From NCBI RefSeq assembly GCF_056712565.1, contig NZ_CM160072.1: a DNA stretch of 64,000 nt; one strand, given 5' to 3'. Numbering within the stretch: the first letter of the stretch is position 1; the number at the start of each line of letters is the position of its first letter. Position numbers: made by a program. Below, in pieces: positions 12,001 through 18,000 of this stretch.

Positions 12001-15000
12001 GAAGGACAGCGTCCGGCACCAGAAATCATTCTTTATAAGAGTCTTACAGATACGTCGCCAGGACGGGATATCCCGGCAGCCCAGGTCATTCTCCTGTTCA
12101 TCGGGAATGTCATCCGGGAAGCCCCGCGTCTGATACCAGCGCAGATAGACAGCTATCTTGTTGCGGTAATGTTCTGCTGTTCTTTCCGGCATCACATCCA
12201 GCAGAAACATCGCGTAGCTGCGCCAGGTATGATGGGCTGGTTTTGATATGCGCTTGCGCAGGGCAAAATAAGCACCGCTTTCATTGGCATAAAGTGCCCC
12301 GCTGGCAGCCCCTGATACCCGCTCACACATCCTGGCCCAGGTATCCGGCTCCAGAACATGGTAAAGCCACAGTCCCTTACGTTGTTCAGGACCAAAAGGT
12401 TCACAGACACGCATGTTGCGTAACGGTACGCCGGCACGGTACATCAGGTCATACAGGGGATTGTAGATGGCACGGGTTCTGGTGTGATATATCCAGATAT
12501 CACGAGTTTTCCAGTCATACAGTGGATACATGGTGTAGTAAAACCCTTCAGGCGATGCCGTGGTCCAGGGCTTATCATCGGCGTATCTCAGTTTGCGCTG
12601 GGACACCAGTCCCATGAACCGGTTAAGGGACTCATCCGCACGGACACCGGTCAGTACTGCCACACCACATTTATTGTCTGCAAACCAGGAAGAAAATGCC
12701 GGAACAAATTCTTCAAACGTCATGGCATACCGATAAAATGGGAAATACGTCATGTCTGTAATGGCCTCTTCCGGTGGCTGGCGAACCCAGGTCACTCCTG
12801 GCTCCCAGCATATCCACTCCGGCTGAAACTGCGAGACGCCGTTTACCGTGGTCAGGGGAAGTGCCACCCAGTAAAAGGTTTCCGTCACATCATGGTACAT
12901 TTCCCGCATCTTCTGAATATGTTCAATGGTGCACTGGTACTGAGCCTCCCAGTCAATAAACAGTACAGAGAAACGACGTTTTTTCCTGCGGGCCACATCA
13001 GCCAAAAGATGGAAAAGTACGGTGGAATCTTTACCCCCGGAAAAAGAGAGACAAACTGATGGAAATGTTTCAAAAATCCACTCAATACGAGCAATTGCTG
13101 CACGCAGAACATTCTCTCCAGTAAGGACTTTCTCCGTTAATAAATTATCATTCATTTATTTTTACTTTATGCAAAAGAAACCCGTTGATATCTCCAATAC
13201 ATAGCAACAAACATTAAATAATATTTAATTAATTATTACAGAGATCGTTTTTACCCTTATATATAAAGTAAGCTACATACATAAATTTTTTCAATAAGAG
13301 ATTTTTATTGCTGATACTGGCACTGTAACAATCCCAGTAAGAGAACGATTAATAACCACCCACTCATGTGGTTCAACCAGCCAGGAGTTTACATGTTCTG
13401 AATCAATAAAATCATGGCAATATAATATATCTGAAGCAGGTATATCCAATTCCAGTTTAACACGTCCGTGATATTCATTCGCATCATTAAAAGAATTCAA
13501 TATATCCATCTCAAAAGAAATTACCCCCTCCCCCCTCATCTCTGCTGTTTCTTTTAACTCAGCAATCATATCTGCATACCTGCCATTAAGTTTCCTGCCT
13601 AACTGGACAGTTGTAATTTTCTTTTCGTTGCAGCATCGCTGAGTATGTTCATATATAGCCATCACTTCCCGGCAAATACAATCAACTTCTATATCACTCA
13701 AAGAATTATATATATCCATAACTTTTCTCTCATAACGCAAAAAACGATTAAATATACGATAATGAGAGAGCAAATCAGGATTTATTACTTTTATTAAAAA
13801 TAAAGTTAATAAAACATAACCTATCTGTTTGCTACCATTAAACCCAATAAAATCACTTACCACATCTCCTTTCAATCTACCTGTTCCGATACAACGAGCT
13901 AACAATTCACTCCTGACATTATATTTACCATTCATATTCGCCACACTATCCTGAACAACAAATGATCACCAAAATGCGTTTAAATACCCTACAAACAAAC
14001 TATCTCACTGAATAAATTGCAACACTTCCCCTTCCACAACGTCCTAAAGGCTTTATATAAAAACAGCAAAAACGAATTAGTTATGCAAAGTCATTTATAT
14101 GAAACCCAGCCATTAACCAATGTTATAATCAGCATCCCATAACGCGAACATTATCACTTTCACCATTATTTTTTGCCCATATTTTTAATTGTTCCATGAG
14201 TTGAGCATTAAAATCATCATCGGGTTCAAAGTCATCAGGATCATAACACTCCCCTTCAAACAAATTAATTATAAGATTTTGAATCTTTTCTTTTAATTTT
14301 TCATCGCGCGAAATTCGATTAAATGCTGTATAGGGTTTATCTTTCCCCAACTCCTCACCACCTAAAAAACGCTCAAAATCGGGGGCACTCCAACGATGAT
14401 ATACTTTTTTCCCATTATTCCTGCATTTTATAATCTCATTTCTAATGATCGTATTAAGCGTCCATGAACCATTATTCGAACCATCTCTACGATAAGGCCA
14501 ATCAATATCATGTACAATCCCAAAATCTGCTTTAAAATGATTTAACATCTTTATCAAAGGAACCAGAACCGCCTTACCTCTGGCTCTGACAATACTTACC
14601 TTACCTGACATCTCATGTTTTTCTTTAGTGATTGCTGAAATAAATGCCGCATGTTCAGTATCACCTTCAACAATAATTGGATAACTCCCAAAAAATATTT
14701 CAGCAAAACCAATATCTGTAAGTTGTAGTGCCTGTAAATTATCTTTCTCATCAAGTGAGAAGTTAGCTTCATCAGCCACATACAAGCGTGGAGAAAGTGA
14801 TTTCCCATCTGTTGAACGTTGCATACGAGCAATCGTAGTATGATCCTCAAGAGGGTTTATAAAGTATGGTGAATGAGTTGTTAATAGCACCTGCCAATCT
14901 GGATGTTTACCAAGTTCATAAAGATGCGCTTGCGCCGCTCTGGCAGCCATTGGGTGTAACGCATTTTCTGGCTCATCCATTAAAAGAATATATCCGGGCA

Positions 15001-18000
15001 AGGCTGGATCGTCTGTATCTTCAGGAACAGGGGCGCCATTTTCAATAGCATCTATTTGTTGTTTCAGAAGATTTATATTTTCACTTTTTACATTTTTCCT
15101 CACCTCTTTTTTAAGTTGTTCTCTAAAGGATTTAAGAAGAGCTTCTCGCTTTTCATTTTGTCGGCTAATTTCATTATGAACCTGGAGCATTGCCCAAAAA
15201 AGAGCTCGTCTTGCTCCTGTCCCCTGTTGCCCAATGCGAGAGTTTCCCGCAGCCTCTTTGACTAATAAACCAGACCCCTGCTTTAATAAATTGTCTATTT
15301 TAAGCTCAGGTGGATTCATTTCAACACTGAGCTGAACACCAAGAGCAGGAAAGACATGTTGAAACCCTGTCTGAATTTGTCGAGAAATAGAAGAAAATCG
15401 TTCTTGATGAGGTTCAGCGATCTCATTTACAGCTTTAACCAAAGCTGCTTTAACTTTTGATATTTGTGACTCTTTATTACACTCCAGAGCCTTCAACTCT
15501 TTCACTAAGGGAGTCAACGCAAGAGTGAGCAATGTCTCTTCTGTAGTCGCTGCATCATCCAGTGATCTAATTCGCATTGGTCTTGGCAAACGTGATTTAA
15601 AAACATTATCGGCTCCACCGGCCTTGCTGTCCTCTGACCAGTCTTCAGTCTGAGGATCCCATGTTTTTCTTGTTGGTTTTCCCGTTTCATCCCAAACCCA
15701 TAAACTGAACCGCCCCGGGTTTCCTGGAGAGTGTTTTATCTGTGAACTCAGGCTGCCAGATCATTGTTTCCGATGGAAGCATAATAAGCTTTTTCTGCTT
15801 CTGCCGGAGGAGTATGGCCCAGCCTTCCCAGCAATCGTCGATTGTTATACCAGTCCACCCACGTTAGTGTGGCCAGTTCCACTTCTGCACGGTTTTTCCA
15901 GCTCTTACGGTGTATTACCTCCGCTTTGTAAAGACCATTGATGCTCTCAGCCATCGCGTTGTCATACGAGTCGCCTGTACTCCCTGTTGATACCAGTAAT
16001 CCGGCTTCTTTTAGTCGCTCCGTATAGGCCAGTGACACATACTGAGAGCCTTTATCGCTGTGATGGATGGTGCCAGACGGACGACGGGCCCACAACGCCT
16101 GCTCCAGCGCATCCAGCACGAATGTCGTTTCCATAGACGATGAGACCCGCCACCCCACGATGTATCCAGCAAACACATCAATGATAAACGCCACATAGAC
16201 GAAGCCCTGCCATGTGCTGACGTAAGTAAAATCAGCCACCCACAGCTGGTCAGGACGTTCTGCCACGAACTGACGGTTTACGCGGTCACCTGTGGCAACG
16301 GTTTTCCGGCTGACGGTAGTGCGGACCTTTTTACCCCGGAGAACACCGGCAAGTCCCATAACCGCCATGAGGCGCGCCACTGTACATCTGGCCACCCTGA
16401 TTCCTTCCCGTAACAACTGACGCCAGACTTTACGCACACCGTACACCTGATGATTTTCATCGTATACGCGCTGTATCTCTCTCTTCAGCCAGTCATCGCG
16501 CTGCGCACGGGTACAGCGTTTATCAGGATGATGCCGCTGCTGCTGACAGTGGTAATACGTTGACGGGGCAATATGCAGTTCACTGCATACCGGTCCGACC
16601 CCGTACTGCTCACGCAGCTTATCCAGCAGTGGCATTATTTTTTCCAGAGGCGGTCGAACTCCGCCTTCGCAAAATAAGCGGAAGCCTGGCGAAGGATATT
16701 GTTACTGCGGTGCAGTTCACGATTTTCACGTTCCAGCTCTTTCAGACGCTGACGTTCAGCGGTGGTAAGCCCACCATCACCGCCTCCGGTATCCCGCTCA
16801 TACTGGCGAACCCAGACACGCAGAGTCTCCGGCGTACAGCCAGTCTTTGGAGCAATGGAACAAATTGCCGCCCATTGTGAGTCATATTCGCCCTGACTTT
16901 CCAGAACCATACGAACTGCCCGTTGACGGACTTCGGGGGAAAAAAGTGTTTTTTTAGTCATCCTGTTTACCTCTTTCTCAGGGAATTTAGTCTCCAGGAT
17001 TCCCGGGGCGGTTCAATCCGGCCAAGCATTAACCGGCAAGGATGGTATCCTAACGCCATTAATCAAACAGTTAACAGAAACCGCTCTGGCCGCTGAACTC
17101 GACTCCCATCTGGCTCAGGATGTTGAAGTCAATCGTAAAAATGGTTCCGGAAAAAAGACCATTAAAGCCCCGACTGGCAGCTTTGAGCTGGCAACTCCAC
17201 GTGATCGTAATGGTTATTTTGAACCCCAACTGGTGAAGAAGCACCAGACCACGTTGTCTGATGAGCTCGAGCGCAAGATCATTCGCCTGTTCGCGCTGGG
17301 GATGAGCTACCAGGATATCAGCCGGGAGATCGAAGATTTATATGCCTTCAGTGTTTCCACGGCTACCATCAGTGCGGTTACCGATAAAGTCATTCCTGAG
17401 TTAAAACAGTGGCAGTAGCGCCCGCTGGAAAAGGTTTATCCCTTCGTCTGGCTGGACGCCATTCACTATAAAATCCGCGAAGATGGGTGTTATCAGAGCA
17501 AGGCAGTTTATACCGTACTGGCGCTGAATCTGGAAGGCAAAAAAGAAGTCCTGGGCCTGTATTTGTCGGAAAGCGAAGGCGCTAACTTCTGGCTGTCAGT
17601 ATTAAGTGATCTGCAAAACCGTGGCGTTGAAGACATTCTGATTGCCTGCGTGGATGGGCTGACCGGCTTCCCTGAAGCGATAAACAGCATTTATCCGCAG
17701 ACAGAGGTACAGTTGTGCGTCATTCACCAGATACGTAACTCGATTAAATATGTGGCGTCAAAACACCATAAAGCGTTCATGGCCGACCTGAAGCCAGTGT
17801 ATCGTGCGGTGTCAAAAGAAGCAGCGGAAACGGCGCTGGATGAGCTGGAAGCGAAACGGGGGCAGCAATATCCGGTGGTGCTCCAGTCCTGGCGCCGCAA
17901 GAGGGAAAATCTGTCAGCGTACTTCCGCTATCCGGCGAATATCCGCAAGGTGATCTACACAACCAACGCGATAGAATCAGTCCACCGCAAGTTCAGGAAA

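Follow-up and report, generated by a model that had tools for sequence, protein, structure and literature searches.

An IS-truncated OLD-family nuclease gene in Escherichia coli and its neighbour orf217, from a protein family without annotation and with a predicted ADP-ribosyltransferase fold

OLD-family ATPase/TOPRIM nucleases are classified by genetic context: Class 1 members are encoded by a single gene, Class 2 members lie beside a UvrD-like helicase, Class 3 members occur in retrons, and Class 4 is the split pair AriA/AriB (PMC10568477). Here we analyse an OLD-family gene and the 217-aa open reading frame (ORF) directly downstream of it, orf217, in a 64,000-nucleotide stretch of contig NZ_CM160072.1 (RefSeq assembly GCF_056712565.1), hereafter the window. 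The two genes share an AT-rich block (GC content 0.32-0.42 over 13000-15600, vs ~0.5 or more on either side). Positions 13200-15705 match, with 100% identity, the ATCC 11775 (type strain) chromosome as well as numerous genomes of extraintestinal pathogenic and avian pathogenic E. coli (ExPEC and APEC). An earlier note, made from the sequence alone, had read OLD and orf217 as the remnant of a two-gene defence system inactivated by an insertion sequence (IS), with orf217 as an uncharacterised kind of partner. We find instead that the region probably holds three unrelated items, a dead OLD gene, an IS and orf217, and not a single system.

Truncation of the OLD gene at an IS boundary

The OLD ORF lies at 14129..15589 on the minus strand (486 aa from a TTG start). 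Upstream of 15589 its frame stays open to 15705 and continues into the IS terminus; the left terminus of the IS, 'TGAACCGCCCCGGG', starts at 15706, where the OLD frame ends. A protein search returned an intact 622-aa E. coli homologue, P0001, along with many orthologues of ~626 aa, and the window copy is 98% identical to residues 102-622 of P0001. The Walker A motif of P0001 (GPNNSGKT) occupies residues 33-40 and is absent from the window copy, which starts at residue 102. What is kept comprises the Walker B motif ILLMDEPE, the dimerisation region and the TOPRIM motifs IIVEGDTE and HDID. Consistent with this, Pfam recognises OLD-like_TOPRIM (E 4e-8) and only the C-terminal end of AAA_15/AAA_21, and the PADLOC 'Old' profile is matched at E 2e-54 over positions 113-523 of 578. 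The window thus carries an OLD-family ATPase/TOPRIM nuclease gene without its N-terminal ATPase head, which was lost at the IS boundary. The earlier note had described both the ORF with Walker B and TOPRIM motifs but no Walker A and the frame running up to the IS terminus at 15706, and both descriptions hold, with residues 1-101 as the missing part. Comparison with strains that carry an intact locus, which it had proposed, recovered the full 5' end and the 622-aa protein.

The IS (15706-17015) is 1310 bp long, with 41-nt imperfect terminal inverted repeats, orfA and orfB of the IS3 type and an ALIL frameshift pseudoknot at 16564-16680 (120.9 bits; programmed -1 frameshift). RefSeq names it an IS3 family transposase with programmed frameshift. 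It resembles IS629 in its length, its terminal TGAACCGCCCCGGG inverted repeats, the -1 frameshift between orfA and orfB and the ALIL pseudoknot; we call it IS629-like, a label that fits its length and termini. A simple IS629 insertion usually leaves a target-site duplication of 3-4 bp (PMC3271280), whereas the window copy has none, its flanks being AAC and ATC. The lack of a duplication indicates that the IS marks a deletion or rearrangement junction and not a simple insertion.

DNA homology to the intact loci L004 and L005 stops at gene nucleotide 303/304, exactly at the IS end, and the 5' part of OLD, upstream of codon 102, is nowhere in the 64-kb window. An IS256 pseudogene abuts the far end of the IS, in the place of the OLD 5' end and the upstream VasL-like gene. 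Two other routes were considered and rejected: relocation of the missing 5' end within the window, from which it is absent, and recombination between two IS copies within the window, which holds a single copy. Given the missing target-site duplication, the IS256 pseudogene on the other side and the absence of the OLD 5' end from the window, the evidence points to IS insertion followed by an IS-associated deletion or rearrangement. In the window lineage, an IS629-like element would have inserted into or beside OLD, and a later event of this kind would have taken codons 1-101 together with everything upstream and joined the IS to the IS256 pseudogene. The earlier note, which attributed the N-terminal loss at the IS to 'insertion or deletion', was right about the loss; its alternative is better put as a sequence of the two.

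Among 5426 complete E. coli genomes, 132 carry the OLD gene. The 5' junction between VasL and OLD is kept in 24, some of which are themselves frameshifted (e.g. strain M8), and the identical IS junction occurs in 107, including APEC O1 and SF-468. We conclude that the OLD lesion arose once and was inherited clonally.

Having lost Walker A, the remnant is expected neither to bind ATP nor to function in phage defence. The expectation draws on published mutants of this motif, whose lysine is needed in vivo in both P2 Old and Vc OLD (PMC10568477, PMC12392090). In E. coli YbjD the ATPase domain is likewise essential, the Toprim domain being dispensable (PMC13261556). Several points weigh against complete inactivity. 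The remnant is still an uninterrupted 486-aa ORF, free of internal stops and frameshifts, with its TOPRIM domain whole, and its ratio of nonsynonymous to synonymous substitution rates (dN/dS) against the intact allele is 0.10. N-terminally shortened OLD calls of 482 and 544 aa are also seen in Klebsiella and Pectobacterium. OLD nuclease domains isolated from the ATPase domain cut DNA in vitro, which makes residual activity of the remnant conceivable (PMC12392090). It could then still work as a TOPRIM nuclease retained for some benefit; an internal start, or a promoter facing outward from the IS, would allow its expression. We nevertheless regard this as highly unlikely. Besides the in vivo requirements of P2 Old, Vc OLD and YbjD, the 107 genomes with the IS junction are near-identical, so the absence of decay is uninformative; an ORF without stops and a dN/dS of 0.10 fit a truncation of recent date by comparison with the divergence of the alleles, the low ratio mainly reflecting divergence older than the truncation; and promoter-like matches occur at no more than chance frequency.

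The shortened calls are represented by P0034, P0017 and P0026 (Klebsiella pneumoniae and Pectobacterium carotovorum), which belong to the same OLD lineage. The 482-aa forms begin at the same internal Met (MRIKSLDD) as the window gene, and P0034 alone represents 134 member sequences. Loss of the ATPase head may thus be recurrent in this lineage. RefSeq/PGAP annotates the window remnant as a 482-aa coding sequence, 'ATP-dependent nuclease' WP_001350737.1, from an internal ATG at 15577 and without a pseudogene flag (also at L001 8129-9577). The call should be flagged as a pseudogene; otherwise defence censuses of ExPEC and APEC genomes such as APEC O1 and ATCC 11775 will over-count.

Relationship between OLD and orf217

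The intact protein P0001 matches the PADLOC 'Old' profile at E 2.7e-67 (positions 3-524 of 578) and the best GajA model at 6.7e-24, while AriA profile matches cover only the 45-residue Walker B region. Its single solved relative by sequence is the Class 1 OLD of Thermus scotoductus (TsOLD, 6P74). Orthologues of 50-77% identity were found at 19 loci in five genera (Rahnella, Enterobacter cloacae, Klebsiella pneumoniae, Pseudomonas aeruginosa and Legionella pneumophila). Because these 19 loci share no common neighbour, and because tblastn detected no orf217 relative near any of them, we conclude that the intact gene is a Class 1-type solitary OLD. The window gene, starting at residue 102 and lacking Walker A, is therefore a remnant of a Class 1 member and not a functional one.

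Co-occurrence of the two genes fails in both directions. We found orf217 in 463 complete E. coli genomes vs OLD in 132, leaving ~331 with orf217 but no OLD. In these OLD-less genomes orf217 shows ~92% DNA identity over the matched stretch, and in the loci sampled this stretch abuts the VasL-like remnant. One Serratia genome also has orf217 alone, OLD stands alone in the five other genera, and none of the nine contexts of the orf217 family outside E. coli has an OLD neighbour.

The structure of the locus agrees with this. The intact locus runs ImpA_N/VasL (463 aa), OLD, orf214/217, an ibrA-like and an ibrB-like gene, PerC, a 214-aa ORF and a 107-aa ORF. In a pairwise alignment, 2044 bp of the intact locus (L005 3217-5260, GC 38%) correspond to 10 bp in an OLD-less locus. 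Homology in OLD-less genomes begins at query position 1623, equivalent to window position 14083, which places the right edge of the variable segment between OLD and orf217 (~14083/14084), and a short imperfect direct repeat (AACTAAT..GT) lies at both edges. OLD is thus a ~2-kb AT-rich cassette, an insertion/deletion polymorphism between a VasL-like remnant of a type VI secretion system (T6SS) and orf217.

The homologous interval of one Serratia marcescens genome (L011 5567-7726) holds a helix-turn-helix gene with KwaA and KwaB, both confirmed by PADLOC (E 2e-71 and 2.6e-122). It lies between an ImpA_N/VasL gene that ends a complete T6SS cluster and an orf217 homologue (64% identity). The same slot thus contains Kiwa in Serratia, whereas in E. 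coli it carries OLD in 132 genomes and is mostly empty, as in ~331 genomes (e.g. L003 7994-8005). It could be mined for further cargo.

A two-gene phage-defence system, that is, a new OLD class with a non-helicase partner inactivated by the IS, would account for several features. In all 132 E. coli genomes with OLD, orf217 follows on the same strand, 184-193 nt downstream; both genes are AT-rich; and the 184-nt spacer has no terminator-like site on the minus strand. Against these stand the ~331 E. coli genomes with orf217 and no OLD, Kiwa in the position of OLD in one Serratia marcescens genome, the 19 orthologue loci with no orf217 relative, the cassette edge that falls between the two genes and the lack of an OLD neighbour in the nine contexts of the orf217 family outside E. 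coli. We therefore consider such a system most improbable. As a candidate OLD partner, orf217 was rejected on co-occurrence; the two-gene hypothesis fails from both sides and is largely refuted, and the window gene is very probably a truncated solitary OLD unrelated to orf217. For the earlier note this means that the dead OLD gene survives, with PADLOC 'Old' as its best match, but the two-gene system does not. The recurrence of an orf217 homologue beside intact OLD homologues, which the note had suggested looking for, was not seen at the 19 loci in five other genera. Its view of orf217 as an uncharacterised partner variant is likewise contradicted by these loci, by the ~331 E. coli genomes without OLD and by the absence of a recurrent neighbour.

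The orf217 family, its predicted fold and its genomic contexts

As the earlier note had observed, orf217 lies downstream of OLD in the AT-rich block and has no recognisable motif: we found no match in Pfam (even at E <= 10), NCBIfam, PADLOC or PHROGs. A word-indexed search with orf217 returned only E. coli, Serratia and two distant relatives. An exhaustive hidden Markov model search with an alignment of these sequences returned 235 representative clusters (at 50% identity), 159 of them at E <= 1e-10 and most with ~300 aa, whereas the E. coli proteins have 214-217 aa. Named members come from Klebsiella pneumoniae, K. quasipneumoniae, Vibrio parahaemolyticus, Photobacterium and Providencia, and each carries the label 'hypothetical protein'. 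CFT073 has orf217 as well. Genome searches with the first family alignment (A1) returned four loci, and a profile word-index search with A2 added little.

An AlphaFold2 model of orf217 built from five sequences had a predicted local distance difference test score (pLDDT) of 84 and a predicted template modelling score (pTM) of 0.84. Beyond the family itself, Foldseek against AFDB50 matched it over its full length to DRAT-annotated models (E 1.6e-11 and 4.4e-10; template modelling score, TM, 0.70-0.76) and, at E 1e-4, to a bona fide NAD+--dinitrogen-reductase ADP-ribosyltransferase. Foldseek against the PDB was not significant, the best match being Tre1 (6drh_B, E 0.21). When single members were scanned with Pfam, DRAT (PF07357) was the sole family matched more than once, at E <= 0.1 in 5 of 90 members (best 9e-4 and 1.6e-3). 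In a 50-sequence alignment with a mean column identity of 27%, R117 and E191 are invariant (50/50), E194 is conserved in 49/50 and S151 in 47/50; conservation at this level, against so low a mean, fits an active site. In the model, R117 lies in the strand 112-119 and S151 in the strand 149-154, and E194 directly precedes the strand 195-198. R117, S151 and E191/E194 would thus form a candidate R-S-E triad in the order of the R-S-E clade. Together these data suggest that the orf217 family adopts a predicted ADP-ribosyltransferase fold resembling DraT and other R-S-E mono-ADP-ribosyltransferases.

We lean slightly towards orf217 being an active ADP-ribosyltransferase, whose most likely activity would be the NAD+-dependent (nicotinamide adenine dinucleotide-dependent) ADP-ribosylation of some target. 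Other observations weigh against this and would suit an inert ADP-ribosyltransferase-like fold or a spurious fold call, with a structural or regulatory role unrelated to NAD+. Thus orf217 itself has no Pfam match and the DRAT matches of its relatives are sub-threshold, profile searches of PDB sequences with both family alignments were empty, the Glu motif is E-x-x-E in place of the classical [QE]-x-E, and the E. coli/Serratia subgroup lacks the family-conserved N-terminal R58 and D62 as well as a ~80-aa C-terminal extension. We consider an inert protein or a spurious call rather unlikely, given the conservation of R117, S151, E191 and E194 and the purifying selection on the gene. Between divergent E. 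coli alleles dN/dS is 0.23-0.34 and every copy is intact, which indicates that orf217 is maintained. Activity as a DraT-like ADP-ribosyltransferase is a testable function prediction for a family that has had no annotation.

Ten independent genomic contexts of the family were compared. Two of them come from E. coli and Methylotenera. In Serratia the gene follows Kiwa, in Klebsiella the ccm operon, and in Providencia it sits beside a type I restriction-modification system. The Iodobacter gene, located within an integrative conjugative element, is divergent from a VgrG gene. Two contexts are Tn7-like cargo regions, in the first of which SNF2/DEAD helicases and a type I restriction-modification system lie next to the gene. 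The remaining two are a fusion protein of 550 aa and Vibrio islands, one of these with BrxR and PLD genes. Six of the ten are mobile-element cargo, defence islands or T6SS islands, so that the family is often, but not always, found in mobile or defence-rich regions. An all-against-all comparison of neighbours within 6 kb on each side showed no recurrent neighbour except VasL (E. coli and Serratia), and the same intervals contained no ADP-ribosylhydrolase, macro-domain, DraG-like, antitoxin or immunity gene beside the family. Family genes are mostly flanked by intergenic gaps of several hundred nucleotides. We conclude that orf217 is a free-standing, monocistronic gene under purifying selection, from an unannotated proteobacterial family. 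It is possible, although we hold this broader reading only tentatively, that the family as a whole represents widespread proteobacterial, free-standing DraT-like ADP-ribosyltransferases in variable regions, without antitoxin or hydrolase, acting as single-gene NAD+-dependent modifiers. If so, these proteins could modify an invader or host target in conflict situations.

The position of orf217 behind ImpA_N/VasL in E. coli and Serratia, where in Serratia that gene ends a complete T6SS cluster, raises the alternative of a T6SS-associated toxin, an ADP-ribosyltransferase effector surviving at one end of a T6SS cluster that has decayed. The Iodobacter homologue adjoins a VgrG gene, and the T6SS effector Tre1 (6drh_B) is among the best structural matches. 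We judge this improbable: delivery domains such as PAAR, Rhs or VgrG are absent from the protein, no conserved immunity gene adjoins it within 6 kb on either side, the Iodobacter gene is divergent from the VgrG operon, and most contexts (Klebsiella, Vibrio, Providencia, Tn7 cargo and Methylotenera) have no T6SS genes. Two further associations were rejected. A phage-borne origin found no support, as the scan of viral contigs returned no relative and PHROGs no match. A tie to the ibrA/ibrB-like genes rested on adjacency in the E. coli loci examined, and Serratia and the other contexts have no ibrAB.

Some distant members deserve separate mention. The two in metagenomic Tn7-like cargo regions (L012 1074-8903 and L029 2247-8032) have different surroundings. 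One lies 28 nt after a gene for a 1091-aa ResIII/DEAD/SWI2_SNF2 helicase with DUF6933 and SNF2 neighbours, and the other follows three unannotated genes (329, 680 and 461 aa); these neighbourhoods may be uncharacterised defence modules. The fusion protein P0211 (L030 7001-8653, 550 aa) carries an extra N-terminal region of ~260 aa without a Pfam match, and P0221 (548 aa) resembles it. The added domain of P0211 might hint at a target or at regulation.

Neighbouring genes and comparison with known systems

The features of the region are listed in Table 1. Further along the intact-locus order, on the minus strand at window 11375-13155, the ibrA-like gene (PAPS reductase/DUF3440, 410 aa; weak BrxP and DndC matches) overlaps the ibrB-like ParB-type gene, which is frameshifted in this strain (187 aa, against 212 aa where the locus is intact). 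As a pair they are similar to DNA-modification modules; a literature search for a link between IbrA/IbrB and phage gave no relevant result. The next block, at 9893-11254 (minus strand), consists of a PerC-family regulator (10946-11254; PHROG transcriptional-activator matches) followed by the 214-aa and 107-aa ORFs, which have no family match in PHROGs, the sole library tried for them. Across the E. coli loci examined, the block is conserved along with ibrAB. The 214-aa ORF (10281-10925) was considered as an orf217 paralogue and rejected: the sequences are visibly unrelated and do not match in neighbour clustering.

Table 1. Positions of the main features of the OLD-orf217 region in the window
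Feature	Position	Strand	Remarks
Truncated OLD gene	14129..15705	-	Codons 102-622 of intact 622-aa protein; Class 1-type
Remaining part of OLD cassette	14084..15705		Intact cassette ~2.0 kb, AT-rich
IS629-like IS3-family element	15706..17015	-	1310 bp; orfA 16635-16961, orfB 15748-16635
IS256-family transposase pseudogene	17016..18175	+	Frameshift and internal stop; RefSeq annotation of identical ATCC 11775 sequence
orf217	13291..13944	-	214 aa if start is ATG at 13935 (RefSeq start)
Spacer from OLD stop to orf217	13945..14128	-	184 nt; holds right edge of OLD cassette, ~14083/14084; promoter-like matches not above chance frequency

On the other side, ireA, a TonB-dependent siderophore receptor gene (18355-20403, minus strand), lies next to the IS256 pseudogene, and the two together indicate an ExPEC-type genomic island rearranged by IS elements. 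A JUMPstart RNA (Rfam RF01707, 58.5 bits) lies at 52067-52105 (minus strand), far from the OLD locus. Such elements typically stand ahead of long operons, those for polysaccharides among them. Within the island, upstream of the VasL remnant, lies a gene for a ~581-aa '3'-5' exonuclease' (L005 106-1491; L002 4104-5849; L003 4545-6290) that matches the PADLOC candidate C3a187 (NERD+UvrD) at E 2.4e-105 and that the window lineage has lost by deletion.

Among described OLD classes, Class 3 does not fit, as the intact loci have no reverse transcriptase, Rfam finds no retron RNA in the window, and with the NCBIfam retron Eco8 effector model the score reaches 26 bits, where 250 is the cut-off. In PARIS (Class 4), AriA and AriB are separate, whereas the intact OLD is one fused 622-aa polypeptide. 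Gabija shares the ATPase/TOPRIM architecture and is matched more weakly, through the GajA profile. It differs in that no helicase adjoins OLD: the NERD+UvrD helicase of the intact E. coli locus is encoded two genes upstream, and its best match is C3a187, not GajB. As a GajB-like partner this helicase was rejected, since it is not adjacent to OLD, is present in L003, the sole OLD-less locus examined, and is absent beside the orthologues of other genera.

For orf217, the closest described proteins are DraT (PF07357) and the R-S-E mono-ADP-ribosyltransferases (mARTs) C3, VIP2, Tre1 and the SidE mART. The likeness consists of conserved Arg, Ser and Glu residues, a candidate triad that follows the clade's order and lies on or just before predicted beta strands, and, for DraT, of weak but recurrent Pfam DRAT matches among family members. 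The differences are that these matches stay below the Pfam threshold, that the Glu motif is E-x-x-E, that no DraG-type hydrolase adjoins the gene, and that the contexts examined contain mobile-element and defence genes but no nitrogenase genes.

The OLD gene itself compares best with Class 1 (P2 Old, TsOLD 6P74, Vc OLD): 'Old' is its best PADLOC match, TsOLD its sole sequence relative in the PDB, and its orthologues in five other genera have a single-gene context. It is far from P2 Old: tblastn against P2-like phages gave no match at E <= 1e-5. According to PMC10568477, Class 1 OLDs do not have other defence genes close by, and it counts against this assignment that the E. coli gene occupies an island slot that holds Kiwa in Serratia. 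The window copy further departs from Class 1 in lacking residues 1-101, including Walker A. Set beside these systems, the remnant as such is ordinary: it is a copy, truncated at an IS and passed on clonally, of a single-gene defence nuclease of familiar type.

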